NCBI GenBank assembly: GCA_903840375.1
Contig: CAIMFR010000008.1
Span: 1 to 39,176, forward strand
Length of the DNA: 39,176 nucleotides
Source of the DNA: Candidatus Adlerbacteria bacterium
Lineage (GTDB): Bacteria > Patescibacteriota > Minisyncoccia > Phycocordibacterales > SBAW01
Reading direction: 5' to 3'
Shown here piece after piece: positions 2,789 to 35,778 of the stretch. The translations under genes were made by a program, and so were the position numbers. Every line of letters starts with the position of its first letter. The stretch's first letter is position 1. The notes beneath the pieces are model-generated. The model was not told the DNA's origin, did not search any database, and saw nothing but the letters and a program-made list of their open reading frames with translations.

Positions 2789-2828
2789 GTCGCTTTTTCT
2801 GCGTCGCTCTTTCTGTTACTGTGTGTAT

Positions 2829-4712
2829 ATGATCCGAGATGATATTGAACAGGCGGTTAAGAAGGCGCTCGAGAGTTTTGGTGTTGGCGACACTTCATTT
2901 GTCGTGGAGCGACCGGGGGACATGGCTCACGGGGATTATTCCACGAACGCGGCTTTGATCGCCGGAAAGATGCTGAAGAAAAATCCTCGCGAGGTGGCGG
3001 AGGAGTTGGCAAAGATTCTGCGTTTGCAAATGGTCTGGCCTAGCCTTGCCGACCGGGCGATTGCCGGCGAGCTGGGAGAACCGAGGACCTTTGCAAATGC
3101 AGAATCTTTGCCAGCCTTGTCATTCATTGAAAAAACAGAAGTTGCCGGCGCTGGGTTCATCAATTTTACGCTTTCGCACGAGGCACGAGTCGCGGAAGTT
3201 TCGCGCGCTGCGACCGACGACGCTTGGGGTAAAAATAATTTATATGACGGGAAAAAGGTGATGGTCGAATATACTGACCCGAATCCTTTCAAGGCTTTTC
3301 ATATCGGACACTTGATGAGCAATGCCATCGGCGAGTCCATCGCTCGCGTGTTAGAGGTATCTGGTGCAAAAGTTGTGAGTGCGTGCTGGCAGGGTGACGT
3401 CGGGCTGCATGTGGCGAAAGCTCTGTGGGGAATACAGCGCGATGTCGCACATCTTCCGCAAGAGAGCAATTCACTCGAGGTAAAGTCTGCATTTCTCGGC
3501 GGAGCGTATGTTGCCGGCGCAACGGCGTATGACGACAATGCGGACGCGAAGGCGGAGATCGACGCGATAAATAAAAAAGTGTTCGACCGCTCCGACGCCG
3601 AGTTGAACGATTTGTATGCGAAGGGTCGTGCGTGGAGTTTGGAACATTTCGAGGAGATCTACAAAACACTTGGAACGCATTTCGACTATTATTTTTTTGA
3701 AGGTACCGAGGGCCGCGACGGCGAGAAGATCGTGCGCGAATTTTTGCAGAAAGGTGTGTTCGAAGAAAGCGACGGTGCGATAGTCTTTCCGGGAGAAAAG
3801 TACGGTTTGCACACTCGCGTGTTTATCACATCGCGCGGCTTGCCGACGTACGAAGCGAAAGAGCTTGGATTAAATAAGGCGAAGTTTGCCGCGGAGCCGG
3901 GCCTCGATGAGTCTATCATCGTCACTGCGAGCGAGCAGAATGATTATTTCACGGTCGCGCTCAAGGCGATGTCGATGATATTCCCGGACATTGCCCGCAA
4001 GACTAAACATGTATCGCACGGTATGATGCGTTTCGCTGCCGGAAAAATGTCGTCGCGCAGAGGTAATGTCATCACCGGCGAATCGCTACTTGCAGACTTG
4101 GCAGATGCCGCAAAAGAAAAAATGAAGGATAGGAAGTTGGCGGATGCGGATGGTGTTGCGCAGGCGATAGCGGTCGGAGCTATCAAATATGCCGTGCTCA
4201 AACAGGGGAGCGGCAAGGATATTATTTTCGATTCACAGAAAGCATTGTCGCTCGAGGGCGACTCCGGGCCATATCTACAGTATGCACACGTGCGTGCATT
4301 GTCTCTGATAAAAATGGCGAAAGATGCTGGGATCGAGACAGACACCTCCGAGCAGTCGGTATCTGCCGAAAAATGTGCGCTCCGGGCCGCTAGGCCAAGT
4401 CCTACCCATTTTTCAACAGGTACCGACTACTCGGAGGAAGATCCCTCTGTTTCTGCCGCCGCTCGCCACATCCTCGAACGCACCCTCCTTCATTTCCCGG
4501 AAATACTCGAACGCGCCGCTAAAGAACTCGAACCGCACCATATAACTACATATCTCACTGAACTCGCGTCAGCATTTAATGCATGGTACGCGGCAGAGCG
4601 AATTATTGGTGGCGAACATCCGCAATACGGACTTCTCTTGGCAGAAGCGGTGGAAAAAACTTTACTGCAAGGTTTAAACACTCTTGGTATTCCGGTCCCG
4701 GAGGAAATGTAG
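2829..4712 (+). CDS. argS: arginyl-tRNA synthetase, carrying two in-frame foldback insertions
   Basis: N-terminal Add-1-like region (HGDYSTNAAL, AGAGFINF), class I signature FHIGHLMS, MSSRRGN, and C-terminal anticodon-binding region (GPYLQYAHVR, EPHHITTYL). I prefer ATG 2829 (MIRDD...) over GTG 2823. Confidence 0.93.
   Translation: MIRDDIEQAVKKALESFGVGDTSFVVERPGDMAHGDYSTNAALIAGKMLKKNPREVAEELAKILRLQMVWPSLADRAIAGELGEPRTFANAESLPALSFIEKTEVAGAGFINFTLSHEARVAEVSRAATDDAWGKNNLYDGKKVMVEYTDPNPFKAFHIGHLMSNAIGESIARVLEVSGAKVVSACWQGDVGLHVAKALWGIQRDVAHLPQESNSLEVKSAFLGGAYVAGATAYDDNADAKAEIDAINKKVFDRSDAELNDLYAKGRAWSLEHFEEIYKTLGTHFDYYFFEGTEGRDGEKIVREFLQKGVFEESDGAIVFPGEKYGLHTRVFITSRGLPTYEAKELGLNKAKFAAEPGLDESIIVTASEQNDYFTVALKAMSMIFPDIARKTKHVSHGMMRFAAGKMSSRRGNVITGESLLADLADAAKEKMKDRKLADADGVAQAIAVGAIKYAVLKQGSGKDIIFDSQKALSLEGDSGPYLQYAHVRALSLIKMAKDAGIETDTSEQSVSAEKCALRAARPSPTHFSTGTDYSEEDPSVSAAARHILERTLLHFPEILERAAKELEPHHITTYLTELASAFNAWYAAERIIGGEHPQYGLLLAEAVEKTLLQGLNTLGIPVPEEM
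3005..3115 (+). repeat. in-frame foldback element A inside argS (111 nt = 37 codons)
   Basis: The 26-nt arms 3005-3030 and 3090-3115 are complementary at 24 of 26 positions, and both mismatches would be G-U pairs in sense RNA. The core 3031-3089 contains TGGTCTGGC, GCCGACCG and GAGAACCGAGGACC, all identical to element B. An inner hairpin spans 3040-3075. Confidence 0.8.
4345..4437. repeat. in-frame foldback element C inside argS (93 nt = 31 codons)
   Basis: The arms 4345-4375 and 4407-4437 are complementary except for 4 positions: one T-G at 4362/4420 and three C-A at 4353/4429, 4366/4416 and 4367/4415. The central 31 nt contain GGCC-GCTA-GGCC. The reverse complement shares TGGCCTAGC with element A. 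Confidence 0.7.
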
Positions 4713-4973: not shown

Positions 4974-5012
4974 ATATGGCAGCGAGCCGGATTTGTGGTA
5001 CATTCTTCATAT

Positions 5013-8000
5013 ATGGCAGAACCTGAGAAAGTTGTTGAAAAAGGCGAGGTAGCCTTGCGCGAGGAGGAGACTCTGGCCTTTTGGATAAAAGAGAAGATCT
5101 TCGAGAAGTCTTTGACTAAAGATGCACCTAAGGGTGATTTTGTCTTCTACGATGGGCCGCCTTTCGCTACAGGTTTGCCGCACACCGGTTCTCTGTTGGC
5201 ATCGGTCATCAAAGATGTTGTGCCGCGCTACAAGACGATGCGCGGTTTTCGCGTGCCACGCAAATGGGGGTGGGATTGCCACGGTTTGCCGGTTGAGAGT
5301 CTCATAGAAAAGCAGCTCAATCTCAAAACTAAAAAAGACATCGAGAAGATCGGCGTCGACACATTTAACGAAGCTGCGCGCGCGTCGGTGCTTAAGTTCG
5401 TCGACGATTGGGAAAAATATGTCAGCCGCGTCGGTCGCTGGGTTGATTTCAAAAATTCATATAAGACGATGGACAACTCGTACATCGAGAGCGTGTGGTG
5501 GACGTTGAAACGGCTCAACGGGAAAAAACTTTTGTACGAAGGCAAGAAAGTTTTGATGTACTGCGTACACTGCGAGACACCTCTTGCCAAGGCGGAGATC
5601 GCGATGGACAACACATACAAGATGATCACTGAGGAAGCTGTCACGGTGAAGTTCAAGATGAAAAATCAGGAGAAGCGCGGCATTCCGGCGAACGCATACA
5701 TTCTAGCGTGGACGACGACGCCATGGACTTTGCCCGGCAACGTCGCACTTGCGGTCAACCCCACTATCCCGTATGTGTTGGTGCAGAAAGGTGATGAATA
5801 TTTGATGGTGGCGAAGGAGAGGGTGAGCGCTGTGTTTGGTGGCGGCGGCGGCGTGGAAAAACTTCCTTCTGAAAATGGTCTGGCGTCAAGCCGACCGTCT
5901 TCGGTCGGTGTTGGCGAGAACCGAGGACCTTTTCAGAAGGAAGTTTTCCCCGACGTCGTGTCCGACGTCGTGTCCGAATTCCTCGGCAAAGAACTCATTG
6001 GCGCGGAGTATGAGCCTCTTTATACGGTGCCGGCAATCGCGAACACGAAGGGCAAAAAATACGTTGTCGTCGGAGCGGATTTCGTATCGACAGAAGACGG
6101 CACTGGGGTTGTACATATCGCGCCGATGTATGGCGAAGACGACTTTGCTGTTGGTAAAAAAGAAGGGTTGCCGATGGTGCAGCTCCTCTTACCGAACGGC
6201 AATTACACCGACCTCGTGCCGGAATTTCTGCGCGGACTATATCTCAAAGCCGGAAGCAAGTTTATCAAAGAAGACTTGGAGAAACGCGGTATTTTGTTCG
6301 GACGCGCGCCGCATTCACACTCATATCCGCACTGCTACCGCTGTGGCACACCGCTCATCTACAATGCGGTTGTGTCGTGGTTTATCAACATCCAGAAAGT
6401 GAAGAGCCGTATGCTCGCCGAGAATGAAAAGATCACGTGGGTACCGGAACATCTCAAGCACGGGCGCTTCAAACACAATGTCGAAACTGCGCCGGACTGG
6501 ACCATTTCGCGCAACCGTTTTTGGGCATCGCCGTTGCCTATATGGAAAGAGAAGGGTGGTGACGGGTTGATGGTCGTCGGCTCGCTCGACGAACTGCTTG
6601 TAAAGACGAAACATTCCGGCAATACATATTTTGTCATGCGGCATGGCGAGGCGCAGGCGAACCTGAAAGATATTTTTGAAACGAAAGGTGATGTGACCAA
6701 TCATCTCACAGAGACAGGTAAGGAACAGGCTCGCACAAGCGCTGAGTGGTTGAAGAAACATGGGCCGATCGATCTTATCGTACATTCGCCGTTGGTGCGT
6801 ACACGCGAGACTGCTTATATTGCGCAAAAAGTTCTCGGGCTCACTGACTCCGCGATGATGGTAGATGAAAGGTTGCGTGAGATGGGTGTCGGTATCCTCG
6901 AAGGCAAAACATTCGATGAGTGGGATAAATATTTCGACGCACCGCTCGAGCAGTTCACCAAGCGTGCGATCGAGGGCGCGGAAACATTCACCGACATTCG
7001 TCGCCGCGTGGGCGCATTTCTATTCGAAATAGACAAACGATACTCCGGCAAAAATATTCTTATCGTGACGCACGAATGTCCGGGTTGGCTTCTCAATGCT
7101 GTTGCGTCGCGACAGAGTATTGGAGAGTGTATGGAAGATCGCGTACAGCACGGCGGATTTCTTACTCGCGGCCAAGTGAAGCCTCTTTCATTCGCATCCT
7201 TCCCTCATAATGCAAACTTCGAGCTCGACCTCCATCGCCCGTACATTGATGCAGTAACACTTTTTGACAAAGCGGGGCGCGCGTACGAACGCATTCCGGA
7301 AGTTATAGACTGCTGGGTGGAGTCCGGCGCGATGCCGTTCGCCTCTGCTGGTTATCCGAAGAACAAAAAAACGATCAATCCTATTCGCTGGTTCGGACTC
7401 GCACCGAAAGGGTATCCGGGCGACTTTATTGCGGAGTACATCGCACAGACGCGCACGTGGTTCTATTATATGCACGCGCTCGGCATTCTGCTTTTTAACA
7501 AACGAGCATTCAACACTGTGGTCTCGACGGGTACGTTGCTTGCGTCTGATGGTGCGAAGATATCGAAGTCGAAAGGGAATTATACCGACCCGATGCTTCT
7601 CATGGATCGCTTCGGTGCGGACGCATTCAGGTTTCATTTGATGGGCAGCGTCGTGATGCAGGCGGAGGATCTCCAGTTCAAAGACGAAGATGTTCGCGAG
7701 GTGCACAACCGCGTTGTCGGCATGATCTGGAATTCATACAAGTTTTATGAATTATACAAAGCGAGTTACAGCGGAAAGGTGCGGAGTTCGGACAGTCCTC
7801 ATGTGCTCGATCGGTGGATTCGCGCACGGCTCGCCGACGTTGCGTTACAGACCACACAGGGGATGGATGCGTTCAATACGCCGAGCGTGTGCCGCGTCTT
7901 GCGCGAGTTCGTCGATGATTATTCGACTTGGTACTTGCGCCGTTCGCGCGCGCGGGTGAAGACTGACACGGAGGACAAGCAGTTCGCACTTGCGACGCAG

Positions 8001-8630
8001 CACGATGTGCTGATCGCGTTGGCAAAACTTACAGCTCCGCTGATGCCGTTCCTCGCGGAAAATGTGTACCGCGGCGTCGGCGGAGACATGGAGAGTGTTC
8101 ATCTCGATGTGTGGCCGGACTCGTGGGAGTTCCTCGCCGATGCGGTATTGCTTGAGAAAATGAAGCATACGCGCGCCACCGTGTCGCAAGCGCTCGACTT
8201 GCGTGAACGTGCGAATATAAAGGTTCGCCAGCCGCTCGCGGCGCTTTACCTGCCGCGCACTATTGACCTAGCAAGCGAGTTGGAATTGCTCGCGCTCATA
8301 AAAGATGAAGTAAATATAAAAAATATAGAGTTCACCGATGATGCGGATATGCGCCTCGACACTAGTATCACTCCGGAGTTGAAAGAGGAGGGAACGGTGC
8401 GCGACATCGTCCGTCAGATCCAAGACTTCCGCAAAAAAGAAAAACTCACCATAGATGCGCGTCCGTCGATCACCATAACCACCAACAAAGAAGGCGAAGC
8501 ATTTTTCAAAAAACAAAAAGAAGTCCTAATAAAAGAAACCGGCTTGGCAAAACTGTCGGTCAACGTTTCTTCGGAAGAAGCCACAGCACAAAGTCTGCAA
8601 TTCCCGGTTGTGATCGCTTTGGAGAAGTAA
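5013..8630 (+). CDS. ileS: isoleucyl-tRNA synthetase (type 2 / eukaryote-like) with an inserted histidine-phosphatase domain and a foldback insertion
   Basis: Motifs seen: PPFATGLPHTGS (HIGH position), WGWDCHGLPVE, TTTPWTLPGN, DWTISRNRFWASPLPIW, DLHRPYID, DCWVESGAMP, KISKSKGN (KMSKS), and a C-terminal anticodon-binding region. ATG 5013 is the likely start; GTG 4995 is possible. Confidence 0.93.
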   Translation: MAEPEKVVEKGEVALREEETLAFWIKEKIFEKSLTKDAPKGDFVFYDGPPFATGLPHTGSLLASVIKDVVPRYKTMRGFRVPRKWGWDCHGLPVESLIEKQLNLKTKKDIEKIGVDTFNEAARASVLKFVDDWEKYVSRVGRWVDFKNSYKTMDNSYIESVWWTLKRLNGKKLLYEGKKVLMYCVHCETPLAKAEIAMDNTYKMITEEAVTVKFKMKNQEKRGIPANAYILAWTTTPWTLPGNVALAVNPTIPYVLVQKGDEYLMVAKERVSAVFGGGGGVEKLPSENGLASSRPSSVGVGENRGPFQKEVFPDVVSDVVSEFLGKELIGAEYEPLYTVPAIANTKGKKYVVVGADFVSTEDGTGVVHIAPMYGEDDFAVGKKEGLPMVQLLLPNGNYTDLVPEFLRGLYLKAGSKFIKEDLEKRGILFGRAPHSHSYPHCYRCGTPLIYNAVVSWFINIQKVKSRMLAENEKITWVPEHLKHGRFKHNVETAPDWTISRNRFWASPLPIWKEKGGDGLMVVGSLDELLVKTKHSGNTYFVMRHGEAQANLKDIFETKGDVTNHLTETGKEQARTSAEWLKKHGPIDLIVHSPLVRTRETAYIAQKVLGLTDSAMMVDERLREMGVGILEGKTFDEWDKYFDAPLEQFTKRAIEGAETFTDIRRRVGAFLFEIDKRYSGKNILIVTHECPGWLLNAVASRQSIGECMEDRVQHGGFLTRGQVKPLSFASFPHNANFELDLHRPYIDAVTLFDKAGRAYERIPEVIDCWVESGAMPFASAGYPKNKKTINPIRWFGLAPKGYPGDFIAEYIAQTRTWFYYMHALGILLFNKRAFNTVVSTGTLLASDGAKISKSKGNYTDPMLLMDRFGADAFRFHLMGSVVMQAEDLQFKDEDVREVHNRVVGMIWNSYKFYELYKASYSGKVRSSDSPHVLDRWIRARLADVALQTTQGMDAFNTPSVCRVLREFVDDYSTWYLRRSRARVKTDTEDKQFALATQHDVLIALAKLTAPLMPFLAENVYRGVGGDMESVHLDVWPDSWEFLADAVLLEKMKHTRATVSQALDLRERANIKVRQPLAALYLPRTIDLASELELLALIKDEVNIKNIEFTDDADMRLDTSITPELKEEGTVRDIVRQIQDFRKKEKLTIDARPSITITTNKEGEAFFKKQKEVLIKETGLAKLSVNVSSEEATAQSLQFPVVIALEK
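5855..5949 (+). repeat. in-frame foldback element B inside the ileS editing-domain region
   Basis: A perfect 18-nt inverted repeat, 5858-5875 and 5930-5947 (90 nt = 30 codons), is extended by GG/CC after a bulged A. The core 5876-5929 contains TGGTCTGGC, GCCGACCG and GAGAACCGAGGACC, identical to element A. An inner 13-bp hairpin with a UCUU loop spans 5885-5915. Confidence 0.8.
5951..5974 (+). repeat. perfect 12-nt tandem duplication (CGACGTCGTGTC x2) in ileS
   Basis: Read directly from the sequence. It encodes DVVS-DVVS and begins 2-4 nt after element B ends. Confidence 0.9.
6621..7215 (+). other. histidine-phosphatase (phosphoglycerate-mutase-like, branch 1) domain embedded in IleRS
   Basis: The segment reads YFVMRHGEAQAN ... 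HSPLVRTRETA ... ERLREMGVGILEG ... ILIVTHECPG. These are the RHG motif, second Arg, acid/Glu region and distal His of the superfamily. IleRS motifs PLPIW (upstream) and DLHRPYID (downstream) flank it in the same frame. Confidence 0.85.
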
Positions 8631-12528: not shown

Positions 12529-12562
12529 ATCCACTAATTTCGCATATGCGAAATTAGTGGAT
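12529..12562. promoter_or_regulatory. perfect 34-nt palindrome upstream of glyQS (candidate operator or structure)
   Basis: ATCCACTAATTTCGCAT|ATGCGAAATTAGTGGAT has 17-nt arms with no spacer and no mismatch. The left arm together with the two preceding T's (12527-12535) reads TTATCCACT, matching a DnaA box at 8 of 9 positions. Confidence 0.5.
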
Positions 12563-12629
12563 GTTTTGCCTTGCTGTAAAAAATAAAAAATCAGTGTACT
12601 ATGTCGATATGGAACAGGGGAATGATTTG

Positions 12630-13934
12630 ATGGAAAAAATAGTGTCGCTGTGCAAGCGTCGCGGGTTCATATACCAAGGGTCTGAAATATACGGCGGGCT
12701 TGCGGGCACGTGGGATTACGGGCCGCTCGGCGTCGCGCTCAAAAATAATATAAAAAATACATGGTGGCGACTCTTCGTCGAAGGTCGCGATGATATGTAT
12801 GGCATAGATGCTGCGATACTCATGAGTCCGAAAGTGTGGGAAGCAAGCGGACACGTATCAGGTTTTTCCGACCCACTTGTCGAATGCGAAAAATGCAAGC
12901 GCCGTTTTCGCGCCGACCAAATAGAGGTTGGGGAAAATGGTATTCAATCTTGTCCGGACTGTGGTGCGAAGCTTGGCGCGTCTAGGCAATTCAACATGAT
13001 GTTCAAGACGCATATCGGCGCGACGGAGGACGAGTCGAGTGTGTCGTATCTTCGACCGGAAACAGCCGGCGGCATCTTTGTTAATTTTAAGAATGTCATG
13101 GATTCTTTCCACCCAAAACTTCCGTTTGGTATCGGGCAGGTGGGCAAGGCTTTCCGCAATGAGATAGCACCTCGCGATTTTATCTTTCGCGTGCGCGAGT
13201 TCGAACAGATGGAGATCGAATATTTCATTCGGCCGAGCGAATGGGAGGCGAAGTTTGAGGAATGGCGCGCTGCCGTGCATGAGTTCAATGCCGCGATCGG
13301 TATTCCAAAGGCGCAGGTGCACGAGCTTGAAGTTTTGCAGGAAGACCGTGCGTTTTACAGCAAACGCACGATAGATTTCGAATTCGATTTTCCGTTTGGC
13401 CGTAAAGAATTATATGGTTTGGCGTATCGCACCGATTACGATCTATCTGCGCATGAAAAAGGGTCAGGACAGCATCTTAGATATTCGGACGAGGGTGAGG
13501 AGTCGTTCGTGCCGCACGTCATAGAGCCGTCATTTGGTGTCGACCGCGCCGTGCTCGCCGTGCTCGCGTCCGCATATACAGAGGATGAGCTGGGAGGTGA
13601 GAAGCGCGTATATCTCAAATTGAAGCCGTCAGTCGCACCGGTTAAAGCTGCCGTTTTTCCATTGCTCAAAAACAAACCGGAGTTGGTGGCAAAAGCTCGC
13701 GAAATCTACATCGCTCTCAAAAAAGAAATCCCGCAGATAATGTGGGACGACAACGGCAACATCGGCAAACGCTATCGTAGGCAGGACGAGATAGGCACGC
13801 CGTGGTGCGTCACGGTCGACTTCGATACATTGGAAAACGGCACAGTTACCGTACGTGATCGCGACACCGGGCAGCAGGAGCGTGTGTCGGCGGCAGAACT
13901 CGCCAAGTTGTTTTCAGAAAAGATAAAAGTTTAA
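12630..13934 (+). CDS. glyQS: glycyl-tRNA synthetase (dimeric alpha2 type)
   Basis: Motifs: RRGFIYQGSEIYGGLAGTWDYGPLG, FRADQ...CPDCG, YLRPETAGGIF, FRNEIAPRDFIFRVREFEQMEIEYF, EPSFGVDR, and a C-terminal anticodon-binding domain. The start is ATG 12630 (MEKIVSL), or possibly 12609. Confidence 0.93.
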   Translation: MEKIVSLCKRRGFIYQGSEIYGGLAGTWDYGPLGVALKNNIKNTWWRLFVEGRDDMYGIDAAILMSPKVWEASGHVSGFSDPLVECEKCKRRFRADQIEVGENGIQSCPDCGAKLGASRQFNMMFKTHIGATEDESSVSYLRPETAGGIFVNFKNVMDSFHPKLPFGIGQVGKAFRNEIAPRDFIFRVREFEQMEIEYFIRPSEWEAKFEEWRAAVHEFNAAIGIPKAQVHELEVLQEDRAFYSKRTIDFEFDFPFGRKELYGLAYRTDYDLSAHEKGSGQHLRYSDEGEESFVPHVIEPSFGVDRAVLAVLASAYTEDELGGEKRVYLKLKPSVAPVKAAVFPLLKNKPELVAKAREIYIALKKEIPQIMWDDNGNIGKRYRRQDEIGTPWCVTVDFDTLENGTVTVRDRDTGQQERVSAAELAKLFSEKIKV

Positions 13935-15077: not shown

Positions 15078-16517
15078 ATGTCCAACGAGAAAAAATTTTA
15101 CATTACCACGCCAATCTTCTACCCCAACGCGAAGCCGCACATGGGGCACGCGTACACGGTGGTGTTGAGCGACTGTCTGGCGCGCTACCATCGTTTGGTC
15201 GGTGATAGTACGTATCTTCTCTCCGGTCTCGATGAGAACACACAGAAGATGGTCAATTCCGCTCGTGCAGTCGGGAAGGAACCGCTTGAGTTTCTCGATG
15301 GCATTGCCAGCATTTTCAAAAATCTCTATACAGAGCTCGATATTTCCAACGACCAGTTCATTCGCACGACCGACCGGAAGGCGCATTGGCCCGGCGCGCA
15401 GGCGCTCTGGCAAAAATTGGTTGATTCCGGCGATATCTATAAAAAATCGTACGAAGGTTTGTATTGTGTCGGACACGAAGCATTCGTCACGGAGAAAGAT
15501 CTCGTCGACGGAAAGTGTCCGGACCATGCCACTGCACCGGAGTTTGTGAAAGAGGAAAATTATTTCTTCCGCCTTTCGCGGTACGCGCAACAGTTGCGGG
15601 AAAAGATCGCGAGCGATGAACTGCATATTTTCCCGCAGAGTAGAAAAAATGAAATACTCTCCTTTATCGACAAGGAAGGCTTGGATGACGTGAGTTTTTC
15701 TAGACCACGCAAAGCTGACTGGCCGAAAGGGCTCGGCATACCAGTGCCGGGAGATGATTCGCAGGTGATGTATGTCTGGTGCGACGCATTATCCAATTAC
15801 ATCACGGCGCTCGGCTACGGTCGCAACGACGAACTTTTCAAAACATTCTGGCCGGCAGACGTGCATGTTATTGGCAAAGATATTTTGCGATTCCATGCCG
15901 CCATTTGGCCGGGCATGCTTATGTCTGCGGGGCTTCCGTTGCCAAAGTCACTCATGGTGCACGGCCTTATCCTCTCCGGCGGAAAGAAAATGTCGAAAAC
16001 GCTCGGCAATGTTATAGATTCGCAGGATTTGCTTACAGAATATGGCGCGGAGGCGGTGCGCTACTATCTCGCGCGCCACGTCACGCCATTCGAGGATGGC
16101 GATGTTACGCCGGAAAGTTTCAAGGAAGTTTACAACGCCAATCTTGCCAATGGGCTTGGTAATCTTGCCGCACGCGTGATGAAATTGGCAGAGACGCATT
16201 TGGAAAAAGTAGACGTTCCGGAGCTGGTGGAGTTGCCGCCGGAGTACGTCGAGGCATTTGAGAAGTTTGAGATAAATCGCGCATTCGATATCATTTTTTC
16301 GCGTGTTCAAGCACTCGACCAAATGATAACGCAGACAGAGCCGTTCAAGCTGGTGAAGACCGACCTAGAGGCAGGAAAAAAACTCATAGCTGACATGGCA
16401 AAAGAGCTGTATCGCATTGGCCACTTCCTCACTCCATTTCTTCCAAAAACAGCAGAGAAAATAAAAGAAGCAGTACGCACCAATAAAAAACCGGAAACTT
16501 TATTCCCTAGGAAATGA
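15078..16517 (+). CDS. metG: methionyl-tRNA synthetase (short form)
   Basis: Motifs: FYITTPIFYPNAKPHMGHAYT (HIGH), YCVGHEAFV, VWCDALSNYIT, KMSKTLGN (KMSKS). Confidence 0.93.
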   Translation: MSNEKKFYITTPIFYPNAKPHMGHAYTVVLSDCLARYHRLVGDSTYLLSGLDENTQKMVNSARAVGKEPLEFLDGIASIFKNLYTELDISNDQFIRTTDRKAHWPGAQALWQKLVDSGDIYKKSYEGLYCVGHEAFVTEKDLVDGKCPDHATAPEFVKEENYFFRLSRYAQQLREKIASDELHIFPQSRKNEILSFIDKEGLDDVSFSRPRKADWPKGLGIPVPGDDSQVMYVWCDALSNYITALGYGRNDELFKTFWPADVHVIGKDILRFHAAIWPGMLMSAGLPLPKSLMVHGLILSGGKKMSKTLGNVIDSQDLLTEYGAEAVRYYLARHVTPFEDGDVTPESFKEVYNANLANGLGNLAARVMKLAETHLEKVDVPELVELPPEYVEAFEKFEINRAFDIIFSRVQALDQMITQTEPFKLVKTDLEAGKKLIADMAKELYRIGHFLTPFLPKTAEKIKEAVRTNKKPETLFPRK

Positions 16518-26005: not shown

Positions 26006-29000
26006 ATGAATATTACCCACAGCTATTCTCGACTCATCGCAGTCACAGCTGGTGTCGCCCTTGCTTTCGCGCTTTCGCTCGGAGCAACGATGCCGGTACG
26101 TGCAGCAGCATTGAGCCAGACGCAGATCCAGTCGATCTTGTCGTTGCTCTCATCGTTCGGTGCAGACCAGGCGACGATCAACAACGTCTCCGCGTCTCTC
26201 AATGGCCAGCCGACCACCGTTACCACCACAATTGGTACGACGGGCACTGGTTCTTACACGTGGTCTACCAACCTCACAGTTGGTTCAAAGGGTGCGGATG
26301 TCTTAGCACTTCAGAAGTTCTTGAACAAGGATTCAGGAACGATGGTTGCTTCCACAGGCGCCGGCTCTCCTGGTATGGAGACTTCTACCTTCGGTCCAGC
26401 GACCAAGGCGGCAGTTATGAAATTCCAGACGAAATACGGCCTTTCACCTGTAGCCGGTTATGTCGGTGCATTGACCCGTGCAAAGCTTAATTCGCTTTAC
26501 ACGACTACAACCACCACAACCAACACGACAACTACAACCACCACAACCAACACTGCTCCGGCAGGCACCGGTCTTACGGTGAACCCGGCAGCACAGCCAG
26601 CCAATGGTCTTCTTCCGTACAGCGCATCTCGCATTTCGTTCACCAACTTCACGGTGACGGCAGGCACTGATGGCGATGTTGTCCTCAACAGCGTCACCGT
26701 GCAGCGAACAGGCTCTGCTATGGACGTCGCCTTCTCCGGTGTGGAGCTTATTGACATGACGACCGGCCTCCAGGTAGGCATCTCGCACGTGTTGAACAGC
26801 AACCACCAGGCGATCATCGGCCAGCCGGTAACTATCGCTCGCGGCACGTCGCGCACCTTCACTGTTGCTGCAAACCGCGCAACACAGGGTAACCACGGCG
26901 GTGAAATCGCTTCGTTCTCAGTCGTTGCCCTCAACACGTCAGCAACCGTAACCGGTTCGCTCCCGATTGTTGGCGCAATGCACACGGTGAACGAAACGCT
27001 CACGATAGGCTCGGTCTCAACCACGACTTCTTCGTTTGACCCGGGTTCAAACCAGACCAAGAACATCGGCGATACGAATGTCCGCTTCTCAGGCATCCGC
27101 TTCACTGCAGGTTCTGGCGAGGATCTCAAACTCCAGTCGATCAGTTGGCGTCAGACAGGCTCTGTCAGCTCGGCTGACCTTGCCAATGTCGTTACCAACA
27201 TCAACGGCGTCACTTACCCGACGACAGTTGACTCGACAGGAAAATACTTCACCACAGTTGTCCCGGCTGGCATCTTGATCGCCAAGGGTAACTCTGTTGA
27301 TGCATACATCCAGGGTGATATCATCGGTTCCAACGCAGCATCCCGCACTGCTATATTCACTGTCGACAAAGTCACCGATGTGTACTTCGTTGGTCAGTTG
27401 TATGGCTACGGCGTTGCTCCGTCCGGCACATACACTCCTTGGTTCAGTGGTTACACAACCACCATCCAGGCTGGTACGGTGTCCACGATCGGCAAGGCAA
27501 CAGAGGTTCCGGCGCAGAACATTGCGATCAACCTCTCGAACCAGCCGCTCGGTGGCTTCGTGACTAACTTCGTTGGTGAGCCGGTATCAGTTTCCGGTCA
27601 GATCTTCTACTTCGACTACAGCACTGGTGCTGCTTCAATCAGCCTCCTCACCAACGTTTCTATCGTTGACGAGAATGGTGCGGTTGTTGCAGGTCCGCAG
27701 AACGGTGTTGCAGTCTCCGGTACAGAGCAGTCCGTTACTTTCTCTGACTCCGTCACATTCCCGGTCGGCCGCCATGTCTACACTATCAAGGGAACCATTC
27801 CTTCGACGGTGGCGAACAACGTGACGATCGCGGCTTCCACCACGCCTTCAGCATGGACAAGCCCGACTGGCCAGACCTCGGGTAACACCGTTTCGGTTGG
27901 CGTAGCTAACTTCACGATGAACACCATGACGATCAAGGCGGCAGCGCTTTCCGTCACGCTCTCATCAACGCCAGCTTCGCAGAACATGGTCGCGGGCGGT
28001 CAGGGTATGACCTTCGCCAACGTGCAGCTTGATGCTTCACAGTCCGGCGAGGATGTCCGCCTCAATTCGATCCCGATGACATTGACTGTCGGCGGCACCA
28101 CAGGTGCGGTCGCAAGCTTGTCATCCTGTGCTCTCTACGATGCGACTGGCAAACAGTTGAACACTGGCAGCAATGTTCCGTCATCGCTTGCAGCAAGCGC
28201 CTCGTCCAACACCTTCACGCTTGATAATTCTCTTATCATCCCGAAGGGAACTGTCACAAACCTTACATTCAAGTGTAATGTTTCCTCGGCTGCAACAGGC
28301 ACCTATGTCTGGAGCGTCCTCGCCTCAGGCTTCACTGCTACAGGTATGACATCAGGTCAGTCTGTCACGGTTGCTTCAACCGCAGGATCTTCCGGCACAA
28401 TGACTGTCGCTTCCGCGACGCTCGCAGTTACACTCGATCCGTCCAGCCCTGCGTACACAATCGCAGCAGCAGGCTCAACAGGTGTAACGCTCGGTGTGTA
28501 CAAGTTTCACGCTACGAATGATGCAATCAATCTTACCAAGATTGGACTCAATCTGGGTGCGTTGAACACAGCATCCTTCGCGTCTTCTACGGCAGCTGAC
28601 TTGACGCAGGTTTCCCTCTGGGCAAACAATGTCCAGATCGGTACTGCAACGTTCACTGGTGCAAACCGCAGTGCAACATCGACTCTTACGTCGGTTGTCA
28701 CGGTTCCGAAAGACGGCGATCTTGTTATCACCGTCAAGGGTAACCTTGCAACACAAGGTGTATCGCAGCCTAGCCACCCAGGCGCTTACTTGGCTGTCAA
28801 CATTGATATCAATGGTGCGACCGGCAGCAAGAACACACAGGGTACTGGTGTTGGTTCTGGTATAGAAGTTGACGGTTCCGGCTCTACAGCAGTTGCAGGA
28901 GTTCGTGTCTTCAACACGTTCCCGACGATTGCAGTTCTCGCACCGTCGACAACCGCTCTTATTGCTCAGACTGGTCAGCAGCTCTTCGGATTCACCATCA

Positions 29001-29545
29001 GCGCTAACTCGACTGGCAACTTGGCACTTGATCAGATGGTCATTAACGTCGCAACCTCTTCGGTTTCGACCGCTAACGGCACCACCTCGGTCACGAACCT
29101 CAAGGTCTATGCGTACACCGACGCTGCACTTTCGAGCGCAGTCGCAGGATACACATCGGGTCTGTTGAACAGCGGCGGCAATGCACTTGCCACACTGGTG
29201 AGCGGCGGCAATAACACCGTTACTCTCGACACGATCCTCACTATCCCTGCAGGTCAGGCTTACTACTTCAAGGTGGTAGGCGATGTAGTCCAGAACGCTG
29301 GTACTACAGGCTCAGCTGGTTCGGTGACGACCAAGCTCATTGGTGATGCTTCATATCCTGACTACCTTGGTCAGCTTATGGCAACCACAAGCGGTATGAT
29401 TAGCAATGCTAATTACCACAACTTCATCTGGTCTCCATTGTCGACAACGACAACAGCGGCTACGACGAATATTGACTGGACCAACGGGTATCAGGTTCCG
29501 GGTCTCCCGTCTGCAGGTACGAACGCTTGGACTCTTACCAAGTAA
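26006..29545 (+). CDS. large secreted/cell-surface protein: signal peptide, peptidoglycan-binding domain, Thr-rich linker, long beta-rich region
   Basis: 1179 aa. The N-terminus has a hydrophobic signal (AVTAGVALAFALSLGATMPVRAAA). A PG_binding_1-like module follows (GSKGADVLALQKFLN...TFGPATKAAVMKFQTKYGL). After the T-rich linker come about 1000 aa rich in T/S/G/V/A with almost no charged residues. Confidence 0.85.
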   Translation: MNITHSYSRLIAVTAGVALAFALSLGATMPVRAAALSQTQIQSILSLLSSFGADQATINNVSASLNGQPTTVTTTIGTTGTGSYTWSTNLTVGSKGADVLALQKFLNKDSGTMVASTGAGSPGMETSTFGPATKAAVMKFQTKYGLSPVAGYVGALTRAKLNSLYTTTTTTTNTTTTTTTTNTAPAGTGLTVNPAAQPANGLLPYSASRISFTNFTVTAGTDGDVVLNSVTVQRTGSAMDVAFSGVELIDMTTGLQVGISHVLNSNHQAIIGQPVTIARGTSRTFTVAANRATQGNHGGEIASFSVVALNTSATVTGSLPIVGAMHTVNETLTIGSVSTTTSSFDPGSNQTKNIGDTNVRFSGIRFTAGSGEDLKLQSISWRQTGSVSSADLANVVTNINGVTYPTTVDSTGKYFTTVVPAGILIAKGNSVDAYIQGDIIGSNAASRTAIFTVDKVTDVYFVGQLYGYGVAPSGTYTPWFSGYTTTIQAGTVSTIGKATEVPAQNIAINLSNQPLGGFVTNFVGEPVSVSGQIFYFDYSTGAASISLLTNVSIVDENGAVVAGPQNGVAVSGTEQSVTFSDSVTFPVGRHVYTIKGTIPSTVANNVTIAASTTPSAWTSPTGQTSGNTVSVGVANFTMNTMTIKAAALSVTLSSTPASQNMVAGGQGMTFANVQLDASQSGEDVRLNSIPMTLTVGGTTGAVASLSSCALYDATGKQLNTGSNVPSSLAASASSNTFTLDNSLIIPKGTVTNLTFKCNVSSAATGTYVWSVLASGFTATGMTSGQSVTVASTAGSSGTMTVASATLAVTLDPSSPAYTIAAAGSTGVTLGVYKFHATNDAINLTKIGLNLGALNTASFASSTAADLTQVSLWANNVQIGTATFTGANRSATSTLTSVVTVPKDGDLVITVKGNLATQGVSQPSHPGAYLAVNIDINGATGSKNTQGTGVGSGIEVDGSGSTAVAGVRVFNTFPTIAVLAPSTTALIAQTGQQLFGFTISANSTGNLALDQMVINVATSSVSTANGTTSVTNLKVYAYTDAALSSAVAGYTSGLLNSGGNALATLVSGGNNTVTLDTILTIPAGQAYYFKVVGDVVQNAGTTGSAGSVTTKLIGDASYPDYLGQLMATTSGMISNANYHNFIWSPLSTTTTAATTNIDWTNGYQVPGLPSAGTNAWTLTK
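26504..26553 (+). repeat. 27-nt-period tandem duplication in the Thr-linker coding region
   Basis: ACTACAACCACCACAACCAACAC occurs at 26504-26526 and again at 26531-26553, separated by GACA. The duplication is in frame (9 aa). Confidence 0.9.
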
Positions 29546-32953: not shown

Positions 32954-33556
32954 ATGGAGAAAGTGAAACATTTTTTGCACACCTTTTGGCATATCGTTCG
33001 CTGGCCTTTTTATGTTTTGCTTGCTCTATATATCGGGCTTGTTGTTTATCGCATACCGGCGGCGATGGATAGAAATAAGACACAGCAGGCGATCGACTTC
33101 ATTCACTCGCAGAAGATAACTCTCGCCGATGTGATGGGTACAAACCTTCCGCCTCCGCCTGACGTGGCGAAGAATAATGCGACAGTCGAGGGTATAGATG
33201 TCAACAACAACGGCATCCGCGACGATGTCGAACTCGCCATCTTCAAACTCCACCCGAACGAAGCGAAAGTAAGAGCAGCAGAGTTGCAGTATGCACTCGG
33301 CATACAAATAATGATGACGAAAGTTAATAATTCGGATACGTGGAAGGTGGCTGCGGATAAAAAAGCTTTCGGACATTTTTGTATTGCGCAAATAACACCT
33401 AAGGCTGTTGATAGGTTGGCGAAAGAAGTAGAAGATCTTGTGTTGAATCTGGATGACCGAAAGCAGGCTTATGGATATGCATTTAATTTCATCTCTAGTT
33501 ATGGTTCATACAAGCAAAACCCTTGCGATGTCGATTTAGCATCATTGCCGAATTAA
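32954..33556 (+). CDS. membrane-anchored hypothetical protein (200 aa)
   Basis: ATG 32954 (MEKVKHF...) followed by a TM helix (WPFYVLLALYIGLVVY). It contains a DVNNNGIRDDVE loop resembling an EF-hand/dockerin-type Ca-binding loop. The longer track ORF from 32720 overlaps the prx gene on the opposite strand. Confidence 0.65.
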   Translation: MEKVKHFLHTFWHIVRWPFYVLLALYIGLVVYRIPAAMDRNKTQQAIDFIHSQKITLADVMGTNLPPPPDVAKNNATVEGIDVNNNGIRDDVELAIFKLHPNEAKVRAAELQYALGIQIMMTKVNNSDTWKVAADKKAFGHFCIAQITPKAVDRLAKEVEDLVLNLDDRKQAYGYAFNFISSYGSYKQNPCDVDLASLPN

Positions 33557-33579
33557 CAAGATTGTGTGGTGTAAGCAAT

Positions 33580-35778
33580 ATGGATATGAAAAAAATATAC
33601 GGAATGTATCGGATGATTGGAATGGTTGTGGTGACTGTGTGGTTGTTGTCTGTTCCTGTTTCTGTGCATGCAGCTTCGTGTTCTGCGAATGGATACACTG
33701 TTGTGTTTGTTAACGGGGTTTCAACTACTAAGTCGGAGGCAGATGCCGCCAGAATTTCCCTTCAGGAAAAACTGAAGTTTGCATACAAAGGTCAGCCTCT
33801 AACAGTAACCCTTGCCTACAACGCTCAACACCTCGCCGGCGCTGCTGATATTGTTGAGGCTGTTTCTCAAATGATGTCTGCCCCTTTGTCCGACTACGAT
33901 CTGCATGCGGCTTTGCGTCAGATGTCCGGTGATGTGACCACTCGCAAACTTATTGTGCTCGGCTATTCGCAGGGCGCTCTGTATGCCAACTCGATGTACG
34001 ACTATCTCACCGCAAATGGTGAGCCGAAAAGTTCGCTTAGCATTTACGCTGTTGCAACACCTGCCTCATACGTCGCTGGTGGTGGAACATACACTACGTC
34101 AAACCTCGATGCGGTCATCCTGGGTGTCACTGCCGCCGCTAAAAAAGTTGGCATCCCTGCGCCGCTTCCCGCCGATGCAGCCCTTTCGGTGTACACCTCC
34201 GACCCGCTTGTGTCGCACCAATTTGATACTTATATAAATGGAGCGTCAGACAAAATTGTTTCAGATATTGATGCCGAGCTTGATCAATTGAAACCCGATT
34301 GGCCGTCCGACACCGAGCCGTGTTTCTTCCCGCCGGATATGTCGGCGAGCGACAATGCGCAGCAGACATTTTTCACTGTTGCCGACCCTATTGCTAGTGT
34401 GATGACCATCAGTGTTGTTGCTACTGCACAGACGACCGTCTCCGTGGTGAAGACAGCCTATGCCGCTGTTTCCAACGCACTCGCCGCCGTCGCGAATGTG
34501 CTGAAGCAGACCGTTTCAAATCCCGCCTCGCCTGCGAACACGGCAAAAAATTTCAATGTAGTGAACAAGCTGTATGGTTCGAGTGTGGACAGTTCGGAAG
34601 GTCGGGAACTTATGGGAAATAATCAAGGCGCGGCAGTCGCTTTGGCACTAAATGATCAGGCGCCGGCATTGGATGATAAACAGCAGAATGTTATTTCCAC
34701 GGCCCCGGCGGTAGTCGCAAGTACGACTATTATTTTAGATGCAACCTCGGCTACTTCTACTTCGACAAGTGTTCTGCATGCAACAACTACGTTGCCGGTC
34801 GCTGCATATTCAGGTGGAGGTGGTGGGGCGAACCGCAGCAGTCCACCGCCTGAACAAGGAACGGATTCGGATTCTTCGCAGGACACAACGGCAACCGAAA
34901 CTCCGTATGTTCCGCCGATTCTTTTTGATGCATCTACTGCACCGCCGGTTCTTTCGGTAGACGGTTGCGCTGCGAATCCGTGTACAGTTTCAATCACCGC
35001 AATAACGCTTCATTGGACGACTCCGACCGGTACGGTGGCTTCTGTTCCGTCGATCAATTCAATACCGCAGGCGACCACTACTGCGTCATCTACAACCTTG
35101 ACGCTCGCTGACATGGCAACATCTACCGTCACTATCACGGTTTATGACGCATCGTCCACACCTCTCACATCTGCGACCACGACGATATATGTCCTCACTC
35201 CGCCGCCGCCTTTTACTCCGCACGGATTCTTTTCCGACACCCTTGATAATTTTGACACGTCGACATGGTTCACGTTCGGCGGGTCGGCTGTTAATTTCAT
35301 CCAAGCCACAGACACCGACAATGGTCCGTGCGTCAGCGGCAACTGCATCCTCGGGTATGCAGACAGCTCCGACATTCCGCGCACCTATCATGAGAACGCT
35401 GCCAACCCACTGACCGAAGGTTCTTTCACAGTCTACGCCAAGGCACAGAACGGAGCTTTTCACTCGCTGTTTCCGGTATTCTCTATATGCTCTGCAAATT
35501 CAGCTTGTGTTGATGGCACCGGTCGCCTCGACATCGTTGATGCTATCCAGTATCCGTTTGATGATGTATGGCACAAATATGCGATCTTCTGGAGACAGGG
35601 AACTTCTCATGTCGAGACGTGTGTCTTGACCGATAGCACCGATGTGCGCTTCTGTATATGGAAAGATTCCGGCGCGGCGCTCGGCATTACCTATGACGCC
35701 CTGGCACTCTGGTCGACGAATGGCTACCGCTCCGACCTCGGAGAAAAAATTTGGTTTGACGAGGTGTCTGGAAATTAA
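33580..35778 (+). CDS. secreted protein: cutinase/lipase-like alpha/beta-hydrolase, S/T/A/P-rich linker, C-terminal ConA/LamG-like domain
   Basis: Signal peptide (MVVVTVWLLSVPVSVHAAS), then VVFVNG...LIVLGYSQGALYA (a GYSQG nucleophile elbow, as in cutinases). The C-terminal domain of about 190 aa is beta-rich (FSDTLDNFDTSTWFTFGG...WHKYAIFWRQG). I prefer ATG 33580. Confidence 0.75.
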   Translation: MDMKKIYGMYRMIGMVVVTVWLLSVPVSVHAASCSANGYTVVFVNGVSTTKSEADAARISLQEKLKFAYKGQPLTVTLAYNAQHLAGAADIVEAVSQMMSAPLSDYDLHAALRQMSGDVTTRKLIVLGYSQGALYANSMYDYLTANGEPKSSLSIYAVATPASYVAGGGTYTTSNLDAVILGVTAAAKKVGIPAPLPADAALSVYTSDPLVSHQFDTYINGASDKIVSDIDAELDQLKPDWPSDTEPCFFPPDMSASDNAQQTFFTVADPIASVMTISVVATAQTTVSVVKTAYAAVSNALAAVANVLKQTVSNPASPANTAKNFNVVNKLYGSSVDSSEGRELMGNNQGAAVALALNDQAPALDDKQQNVISTAPAVVASTTIILDATSATSTSTSVLHATTTLPVAAYSGGGGGANRSSPPPEQGTDSDSSQDTTATETPYVPPILFDASTAPPVLSVDGCAANPCTVSITAITLHWTTPTGTVASVPSINSIPQATTTASSTTLTLADMATSTVTITVYDASSTPLTSATTTIYVLTPPPPFTPHGFFSDTLDNFDTSTWFTFGGSAVNFIQATDTDNGPCVSGNCILGYADSSDIPRTYHENAANPLTEGSFTVYAKAQNGAFHSLFPVFSICSANSACVDGTGRLDIVDAIQYPFDDVWHKYAIFWRQGTSHVETCVLTDSTDVRFCIWKDSGAALGITYDALALWSTNGYRSDLGEKIWFDEVSGN

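Follow-up and report, generated by a model that had tools for sequence, protein, structure and literature searches.

A histidine-phosphatase domain nested in the catalytic core of a type-2 isoleucyl-tRNA synthetase in Patescibacteria

We analysed a stretch of 39,176 nucleotides (nt) from Candidatus Adlerbacteria (contig CAIMFR010000008.1 of assembly GCA_903840375.1, positions 1 to 39,176; the window), which carries on its forward strand a gene for isoleucyl-tRNA synthetase (IleRS) with a second enzyme domain nested inside it. The gene, ileS (4995..8630, + strand), is a single uninterrupted open reading frame (ORF) of 1211 amino acids (aa) when read from the GTG at 4995; the database copy of the protein (P0121), which is found on 10 contigs, the longest of 273 kb, has 1205 aa and begins at the ATG at 5013, which is likely the true start. 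The nested histidine-phosphatase domain occupies aa 543-743 (6621..7223, + strand), starting at N543 (6621-6623), between GSLDELL...SG and (E)LDLHRPYID. A first-pass annotation, produced by a model from the letters of the window, had proposed that such a domain is inserted in one frame into the catalytic core of IleRS, and the architecture stands: ORF 4995..8630 spans it in one frame, the loop in question has a few residues in solved type-2 structures, and all of the peptides quoted for it are present at the positions given in the translation of the window. The limits proposed for the insert, 6621-7215, agree to within a few residues with the extra segment of 198 aa (aa 546-743) that is obtained by comparison with a host profile built from 35 insert-less relatives.

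The host protein scores 764 bits against the NCBIfam equivalog model for isoleucine--tRNA ligase (TIGR00392; cutoff, 621), and Pfam recovers tRNA-synt_1 in two stretches (1e-110) along with His_Phos_1, Anticodon_1, and DUF5915 from the full ORF. The NCBIfam models for MupA and MupB also match the window protein strongly, with scores far under their cutoffs. An AlphaFold2 model of the full-length protein (mean pLDDT, 83.8; pTM, 0.75; about 86-97 in the insert region) has its best Foldseek matches in 8C8V (P. megaterium IleRS2), 8WND (yeast), and 1ILE (T. thermophilus), with E values of 1e-74 to 1e-60, and the type-1 IleRS structures 8C9E and 1QU2 rank lower (1e-46 to 1e-42). Because of these matches to IleRS2-type enzymes and the presence of DUF5915, we assign the modelled host to the type-2 (IleRS2, eukaryote-like) IleRS. 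It has the same fold and domain order as 8C8V, 1ILE, and yeast IleRS 8WND/7D5C (TM of at most 0.87 on the target), with a Rossmann core split by CP1, followed by KMSKS, a helical anticodon-binding domain, and the type-2 C-terminal domains. Unlike the solved type-2 enzymes, it carries an enzyme domain of 200 aa where those have a loop of about 8 residues, and its sub-clade is without the zinc-knuckle cysteines beside that loop and has H-x-G-S as its HIGH signature.

The N-terminal host part (aa 26-542; 5070..6620, + strand), delimited by a Pfam tRNA-synt_1 stretch over aa 26-557 and an anchor hidden Markov model, comprises the first half of the Rossmann catalytic fold, the CP1 editing domain, and then the segment that runs to the insertion loop (...PDWTISRNRFWASPLPIW...GSLDELLVKTKHSG). 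The class-I HIGH signature in this part is non-canonical, H63-T64-G65-S66 (5181..5192, + strand), and of 119 close relatives, 105 have S at position 66, 9 have N, and 5 have H. A tie between H-x-G-S and the insert was considered and rejected because distant insert-bearing IleRS representatives mostly have the canonical HYGH, and we therefore treat this signature as a quirk of the sub-clade. Altered HIGH motifs are reported to be associated with mupirocin hyper-resistance in IleRS2 (PMC10485003). The CP1 editing motifs TTTPWT (Thr rich; aa 240-245; 5712..5729, + strand; 120/120) and GTGVVH...D382 are invariant in close relatives, as is one CxxC pair (aa 190/193 and 447/450). Downstream of the insert, the host resumes (7224..7709, + strand) with LDLHRPYID, DCWVESGAMPFA (aa 772-783), the second half of the Rossmann fold, and KISKS, a KMSKS signature that is again invariant in close relatives (aa 855-859; nt 7557-7571, + strand); Pfam then places the helical anticodon-binding domain (Anticodon_1) at aa 939-1082 (7809..8240, + strand) and the type-2 C-terminal tRNA-binding domain (DUF5915) at aa 1120-1200 (8352..8594, + strand), the latter also covered by the full-length structural match to 8C8V.

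The insert is flanked by the IleRS motifs PIW...GSLDELL and DLHRPYID...DCWVESG. In solved type-2 IleRS the spacing between these flanks is about 8 residues (positions 479/488 in 1ILE, 496/505 in C. albicans 6LDK, and about 476/479 in 8C8V), and in insert-less relatives from the Patescibacteria (also known as the candidate phyla radiation [CPR]) the anchors are 4-17 residues apart, in most cases with the zinc-knuckle cysteines CxxC...CxC on either side. By these alignments the insert takes the place of the tip loop of a small zinc-knuckle sub-domain in the catalytic core, which we tentatively equate with the CP3 of yeast IleRS. The yeast nomenclature recognizes a CP core, CP1, CP2, and CP3 (PMC11685878). 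In the sub-clade of the window the zinc-knuckle cysteines have been lost (KEKGGDG / DKAGR versus CxxC...CxC in insert-less relatives); the possibility that the insert replaces the lost knuckle was rejected, as CxxC is kept in other insert-bearing lineages. The insert has a GC content of 0.50, compared to 0.52 in the host, and a GC content at third codon positions (GC3) of 0.515 (6621-7214), compared to 0.625 and 0.628 in the flanking synthetase (4995-6620 and 7215-8627, respectively). A recent horizontal origin on the grounds of composition was rejected: overall GC is similar, and because the architecture is ancient we read the lower GC3 of the insert as weaker codon constraint.

The identity of the nested domain is well marked. 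Pfam places His_Phos_1 (PF00300) at aa 546-702 (6630..7100, + strand; profile positions 2-156 of 194) with an E value of 1.7e-33, and the 6621-7215 segment by itself yields 4.9e-35; scores of 116-121 bits against a cutoff of 21.7 bits place it among the branch 1 histidine phosphatases, and the flanks match tRNA-synt_1, both as the first reading of the locus would predict. That reading also held that the catalytic residues are retained, and they are indeed all present and 98-100% conserved in relatives. Among the 120 close relatives, R549 and H550 of the RHG motif (6639..6644, + strand) are found in 119/120 and 120/120, respectively, and both are found in all 68 representatives at the same insertion site (site 1), each of which stands for a cluster at 50% identity; H550 is predicted to be the nucleophile that accepts the phosphoryl group. 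The phosphate-pocket Asn, N556 (6660..6662, + strand), is kept in 118/120 close relatives and in 78% of distant representatives, the second phosphate-binding Arg, R602 of SPLVRTRETA (6798..6800, + strand), in 120/120, the predicted proton donor, E629 of DERLRE (6879..6881, + strand), which aligns with the Glu of the PhoE LRE, in 120/120, and the distal catalytic His, H693 of VTHE (7071..7073, + strand), in 119/120 close relatives and 68/68 site-1 representatives. An alignment brings both RHG residues (Arg and His) into register with PhoE and PspA, and likewise the second Arg, the proton-donor Glu, and the distal His. The full R-H-N-R-E-H set is present in 77 of 80 species-representative loci, and in two of the three exceptions the alignment has gaps in the final one to three catalytic columns.

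Apart from its catalytic residues, the insert belongs to the least conserved regions of the protein, with a mean column entropy of 1.82 bits versus 0.6-0.8 in the synthetase core across the 120 relatives. In the 68 diverged site-1 copies the positions with at least 85% identity are R, H, G, L-T..G, S..R...TA, E, E, R, and H, which make up the generic His_Phos_1 core and include no position beyond it. Catalytic residues that are near-invariant in an otherwise variable domain suggest that the insert is apparently a catalytically competent enzyme.

Modelled alone with AlphaFold2, the insert has a pLDDT of 95.5 and a pTM of 0.92, and its family alpha/beta fold is complete as far as the last strand, with Foldseek TM scores of 0.70-0.77 to PhoE, GpgP, PspA, CobC, and S. 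pombe PGM. The small phosphatases (Rv2419c GpgP, PhoE, PspA, riboflavin-pathway HFP, and CobC) superpose with TM scores of 0.70-0.74 and root-mean-square deviations (rmsd) of 2.5-3.3 A, and true dPGM mutase structures superpose at rmsd 7-8 A. Among NCBIfam models, dPGM TIGR01258 gives 27 bits against a cutoff of 81.7 and covers only the first ~100 residues, CobC TIGR03162 gives 83 against 163, PspA NF045917 gives 56 against 350, and SixA TIGR00249 gives 48 against 74.5 with a match confined to the first ~75 residues; the best model, NF005567 (RNase H / acid phosphatase), reaches 96 bits over its CobC-like phosphatase half, far below its cutoff of 326. The first-pass annotation was thus right about a histidine phosphatase, which in the model folds confidently, but its qualifier "PGM-like" holds only at the superfamily level and is better replaced by "PhoE-type", because no mutase model passes its cutoff and the dPGM structures superpose poorly. 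Sequence and model together place the insert, as a predicted enzyme, in the branch-1 superfamily and in its PhoE-like phosphatase type. It shares fold, size (~200 aa), catalytic residues, and cap length with PhoE of B. stearothermophilus (1H2E), GpgP Rv2419c of M. tuberculosis (4PZ9), PspA of H. thermophilus (4IJ5), riboflavin-pathway HFP (9MMH), and CobC (6E4B), from which it differs in being only 20-27% identical and in being nested in another enzyme, whereas those are free-standing. The window copy has a full PhoE-like cap and a length similar to that of PhoE. In about 17% of the 120 close relatives, ~30 aa are missing immediately behind the catalytic Glu (equivalent to aa ~631-662 of the window protein), a loss that takes away most of the phosphatase cap; these cap-deleted relatives (P0165, P0177, P0191, P0228, and about 16 others) have a SixA-sized domain in which the catalytic residues are all kept.

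The architecture is not confined to the window. All 120 best full-length matches (55-63% identical) carry both PF00133 and PF00300, and all but two of them, a partial entry of 1007 aa and a protein of 1063 aa, are 1082-1192 aa long. When GTDB r232 was scanned at one genome per species, with two short peptide patterns as the only query, at least 457 loci that encode a relative of the insert were recovered. The best 80 of these 457 loci all belong to Patescibacteria (Paceibacterota; Adler-, Nomura-, Yonath-, Wolfe-, Kaiser-, Niyogi-, Vogel-, and Lloydbacteria; one Berkelbacteria; and RAAC4_OD1_1), and the architecture has been public since at least the RAAC4_OD1_1 genome of 2013. In each of the 80, the upstream anchor, the insert, and the downstream anchor follow one another in this order in one open frame. 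A survey of IleRS for the same insertion point, as the earlier annotation had envisaged, thus finds an architecture that is widespread in Patescibacteria and no singleton. We conclude that the domain is a genuine and ancient feature that has been inherited vertically across Paceibacteria-type Patescibacteria.

An artefact, either a chimeric assembly or a fusion of two genes by frameshift, is almost certainly the wrong explanation. The window is metagenome-style sequence and a few database entries do split the gene, but those entries, P0019 and P0241, are frameshifted copies of the same locus from two ENA samples, and the uninterrupted form recurs in 80/80 independent species-representative assemblies and in 120/120 of the closest proteins, and the window protein itself stands on its 10 contigs. 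On these counts we rejected both mis-assembly and gene fusion, and the junctions, whose contiguity the first-pass annotation wanted confirmed, are genuine. P0019 and P0241, entered as "His_Phos-only" proteins, were likewise rejected as free-standing close relatives, being frameshift fragments of an ArgRS-IleRS-RecO locus. True stand-alone relatives of the insert are at most 38% identical, so that no donor lineage can be named. The nearest of them, P0244 (L003/L004; 207 aa, 38% identical, 86 member sequences), lies in an archaeal-looking context with PCNA, a TFIIS-type zinc ribbon, and RNA polymerase subunit L.

To rank hosts blindly with respect to inserts, the N-terminal 542 aa were queried against every 50%-identity cluster representative and insertions were mapped with anchor and host profiles; the counts cover the 150 best representatives. 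About 75 of the 150 have one His_Phos domain at the site of the window, and about 60 (~40%) have no insert. Tandem His_Phos pairs occupy the window's site in P0290 and P0301. Elsewhere in the host, His_Phos domains are found just after the second zinc-knuckle half (P0307 copy 1 and P0345), between MPYA..HYPF and FPADFIAEG.DQTRGWF (site 2; P0308, which is the Candidatus Peregrinibacteria protein PCI25629.1, P0344, P0291, P0307 copy 2, and P0394), and after KMSKS directly before D(R/H)WI.SEL (site 3; P0279 and P0278 copy 2). Counted over all sites, 76 of 79 embedded copies retain the R, H, R, E/D, H core, among them both members of pairs. Copies at other sites are 30-36% identical to the site-1 copies, no closer than free-standing enzymes, which fits separate or very old acquisitions, at a divergence too saturated for a domain tree to count them. 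A host-only neighbor-joining tree, which is unreliable at such depth, has at least 26 state changes, with insert-bearing and insert-less proteins interleaved. The insert thus appears patchy and dispensable over evolutionary time.

Other enzyme families are nested in related CPR IleRS as well, at these host loops or at loops close by. MutT/NudG-like NUDIX domains occur at three loops (host-profile positions 486, 214, and 252; P0372, P0285, P0331, P0326, and P0309); in P0372 a NUDIX domain occupies the very site that His_Phos has in the window protein, and P0309 and P0326 have NUDIX and His_Phos in a single protein. These NUDIX inserts do not look Ap4A-hydrolase-like, and no NCBIfam model matches them above its cutoff. 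GNAT domains are nested at five IleRS loops (P0306, P0328, P0362, P0365, and P0394); that of P0362 is of the Acetyltransf_3 type and matches the GNAT part of the NCBIfam model ileS_w_GNAT, and P0394 (1859 aa) carries GNAT, His_Phos, and a 211-aa insert with no identification. P0359 has a P-loop kinase-like domain (AAA_18/AAA_33; Walker A "GACGAGKTT") at site 2 (aa 738-908) and His_Phos at site 1. Single proteins that combine His_Phos with a NUDIX, GNAT, or kinase-like domain therefore exist. In the editing-domain region, P0269 (aa ~264-513) and P0334 (aa ~300-462) have an in-frame IS200-like Y1 transposase-like domain (Pfam Y1_Tnp, E=1e-11; HUH-like "HVHL" present), and P0304 (aa 261-443) and P0325 (aa 263-463) have two related inserts of ~190 aa with no Pfam match. 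An insertion of 60-80 aa at host position 858 is common among the related IleRS.

We consider it on balance probable that the window encodes a bifunctional IleRS carrying an autonomous, active PhoE-type phosphomonoesterase module of about 200 aa. The synthetase part would be a working type-2 IleRS in which KMSKS, the variant HIGH (H-x-G-S), the editing motifs, and the anticodon-binding domains are kept. Branch-1 histidine phosphatases all hydrolyse their substrates through a phospho-histidine intermediate, and the module would likewise hydrolyse phosphomonoesters via phospho-His550; the phosphate would be bound by Arg549, Asn556, Arg602, and His693, and the leaving group would receive its proton from Glu629. 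It would act autonomously, tethered to IleRS and outside the aminoacylation chemistry, because four loops tolerate the same family, the cap is part-deleted in the ~17% of relatives described above, and many related IleRS are insert-less. It may serve as a housecleaning or salvage phosphatase for small molecules, probably of nucleotide type, carried by an essential protein that is always expressed, a tentative proposal in which we have less than even confidence and which draws on the PhoE-like cap, the occurrence of MutT-like NUDIX and GNAT domains in the same loops, and the many insert-less relatives.

Several observations weigh against this picture of a loosely tethered, independent enzyme. 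The junction residues SGN.Y and P.PHN..YELD are nearly invariant among close relatives, which could mean a fixed orientation on the host in place of a loose tether. Compared with free-standing relatives, the embedded copies carry a charge that is more positive by ~6-7 units, a weak pointer to RNA nearby, although their net charge averages only about +1. None of the NCBIfam equivalogs for mutase, CobC, PspA, SixA, or GpmB attains its cutoff, and the sequence names no substrate. Finally, the same three families (His_Phos, NUDIX, and GNAT) recur in one host at several sites, for which a permissive scaffold alone is a poor explanation and which hints at functional coupling with IleRS. A serious, though less likely, alternative is that the nested His_Phos, NUDIX, GNAT, and kinase-like domains form a cis-acting accessory toolkit that is functionally coupled to the synthetase; its job might be the healing or checking of a phosphorylated tRNA-Ile end, the clearing of nucleotide by-products or antimetabolites from the active site, or the reversal of inhibitory phosphorylation of the synthetase.

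More specific forms of coupling can be weighed on the same data. One would have the tRNA healed and charged in one complex, with IleRS binding tRNA-Ile and the nested domain stripping a terminal RNA phosphate, be it a 3'- or 2'-phosphate on a damaged CCA end or a 5'-phosphate by the acceptor end. The lack of conserved substrate-specific residues past the phosphate-binding core, as if the host gave the specificity, is consistent with this, as are the positions of the inserts (the catalytic domain for sites 1, 1b, and 2, and for site 3 the stretch between KMSKS and the anticodon-binding helices), the more positive charge of embedded copies, and the open, SixA-like active site that the cap-less variants would have. 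P0359 moreover joins His_Phos to a P-loop kinase-like domain, a pairing that resembles RNA end-healing enzyme pairs. We know of no branch-1 histidine phosphatase that acts on RNA ends, however, and with a mean net charge of only about +1, a full PhoE-like cap in the window copy, GNAT and MutT-like NUDIX inserts that are off-theme, and many insert-less relatives, we regard this explanation as unlikely. Self-protection or by-product clearing, in which the nested enzymes would remove a phosphorylated or nucleotide-type IleRS ligand so that the active site stays free (an Ile-AMP-mimicking inhibitor or antimetabolite, dinucleoside polyphosphates, or their breakdown products), strikes us as quite unlikely. 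GNAT, NUDIX, His_Phos, and kinase-like domains are classic small-molecule modifying and detoxifying families, and the Acetyltransf_3 type, to which the GNAT insert of P0362 belongs, includes RimL and MccE, which acetylate toxic aminoacyl-nucleotides. Histidine phosphatases, however, cut phosphomonoesters and not the phosphoramidate, sulfamate, or acyl-phosphate of aminoacyl-adenylate mimics, and to our knowledge no IleRS inhibitor bears a phosphomonoester; the NUDIX inserts, unmatched by any model above cutoff, look MutT/NudG-like and not like Ap4A hydrolases, and PADLOC gave no signal. Natural inhibitors of IleRS include SB-203207/8 (PMC6331615) and mupirocin (PMC10485003), and stand-alone resistance enzymes of the HIT type against microcin C, an aminoacyl-nucleotide antibiotic, have homologues in Parcubacteria, one of which was active when tested (bioRxiv 10.1101/2020.03.04.977132).

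The nested domain could instead be a protein phosphatase, for phospho-His or phospho-Ser/Thr, that acts on IleRS or a partner protein, for example by undoing an inhibitory phosphorylation of the KMSKS loop, such as HipA-family toxin kinases carry out on other synthetases, or by resetting a phospho-relay. Precedents come from mycobacterial MutT1, whose RHG C-terminal domain dephosphorylates sensor histidine kinases (PMC12407098) and whose NUDIX domain dephosphorylates phospho-NDK (PMC11784022), and from SixA, which dephosphorylates phospho-Ndk (PMC12934123). MutT1 pairs NUDIX with an RHG domain as P0309 and P0326 do, the ~17% of close relatives that are cap-less have a SixA-sized domain, and the KMSKS loop would remain within reach of domains inserted at several points around the catalytic domain. 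The window domain, however, is PhoE/CobC-like over its full length, with a SixA match limited to the first ~75 residues, and its gene neighbourhood gives no hint of a toxin kinase or phospho-relay. As we also know of no kinase that targets IleRS, this reading is very unlikely. Highly improbable is a non-enzymatic module, a binder of phosphate or RNA backbone or a structural element such as a zinc-knuckle substitute, in which the residues are kept for binding or folding; the absence of zinc-knuckle cysteines at the site in the window's sub-clade and the otherwise poor conservation of the insert would suit it, but the CxxC knuckle is retained in other insert-bearing lineages, and the nucleophile His, the Glu, and the distal His are near-invariant over deep divergence and in both tandem copies. 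A purely structural or binding role is unlikely because the proton donor and nucleophile are invariant and binding alone needs no proton donor.

With the bifunctional enzyme as the preferred reading, its parts are known (synthetases do carry accessory domains, and the histidine phosphatase is of an ordinary type) and their nested arrangement is, provisionally, unreported. Extra domains of synthetases are mostly terminal, non-catalytic, and found in eukaryotes; here the catalytic core of a class-I synthetase from bacteria houses a complete second enzyme, whose active site has stayed intact in hundreds of species of a radiation that is among the largest and most poorly understood in bacteria. 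The first-pass annotation was aware of no aminoacyl-tRNA synthetase with a histidine-phosphatase insert, and we likewise found no paper on a histidine phosphatase or NUDIX domain nested in such an enzyme, a result that is provisional since the literature covered lies mostly outside subscription journals. The architecture is not described in the AARS Online paper, in the 2024 yeast IleRS-tRNA paper, or in a 2026 proteome-wide survey of domain insertions, supplements included. A 2026 preprint on IleRS domain evolution with about 1,500 segmented sequences describes only an INS of ~80 aa in ARD2, which matches the common 60-80-aa insertion at host position 858. The closest curated likeness is the NCBIfam model NF040702 (ileS_w_GNAT), also an IleRS with a nested accessory enzyme domain, which differs in that the domain is of the GNAT family and lies in the editing-domain region (model positions about 333-421); the window protein is not a member (274 bits against a cutoff of 1999, and no Pfam GNAT match), and NCBIfam holds no equivalent model for His_Phos-bearing IleRS. 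Mycobacterial MutT1 resembles P0309 and P0326 in joining a MutT-like NUDIX and a branch-1 histidine phosphatase in one polypeptide, with an active RHG domain (PMC12407098), but it is an end-to-end fusion with no synthetase and a SixA-like RHG domain acting on phospho-histidine proteins, whereas the window protein has no NUDIX domain and a PhoE-like phosphatase. The Rv2228c-type RNase H/acid phosphatase (NF005567) similarly fuses a CobC-like phosphatase half to a nucleic-acid enzyme, but terminally and to another partner.

The nesting in CPR IleRS is clade-wide, multi-site, and multi-enzyme, and so broader than a single gene, suggesting either an unusually permissive scaffold or a functional link between IleRS and nucleotide/phosphate "housecleaning" chemistry. 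If a coupled toolkit did exist, the ultra-small Patescibacteria would have a layer of synthetase quality control or self-protection of their own that has so far gone unrecognised, and the pattern in any case bears on how functions are packaged in reduced genomes. It also matters for annotation: public databases name these proteins "class I tRNA ligase family protein", "isoleucyl-tRNA synthetase", or "hypothetical protein", many of them only by the first of these names, and resistome pipelines may call them mupirocin-resistance IleRS. The nested-phosphatase hypothesis is directly testable with one recombinant protein.

Around ileS, four aminoacyl-tRNA synthetase genes lie within 14 kb of the window: ArgRS (2823-4712), IleRS (4995-8630), a class-II synthetase with an HGTP anticodon domain (12561-13934), and a short MetRS of 479 aa (15078-16517). 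The order ArgRS-IleRS-RecO is kept in related contigs (L001 and L002), a synteny that is uninformative on the function of the insert. PADLOC returned no defence-system match, there was no other conflict-system signal, and a defence link of the insert was rejected on the former ground. The ileS gene of the closest relative without an insert (P0258) has an RNase H gene (L085, 2168-2626) immediately upstream; its correspondence with the RNase H/acid phosphatase model that best matches the insert is probably a coincidence. The 7-nt repeat GCTCGAC that the first-pass annotation pointed out on either side of the insert was rejected as an insertion footprint, as the window has 13 copies of the heptamer where 6.9 are expected, and the two beside the insert simply encode Leu-Asp. 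Farther downstream, a 1179-aa ORF (26006-29545) with only a peptidoglycan-binding domain and a 751-aa ORF (33523-35778) with no Pfam match look like typical large unannotated surface proteins of Patescibacteria.

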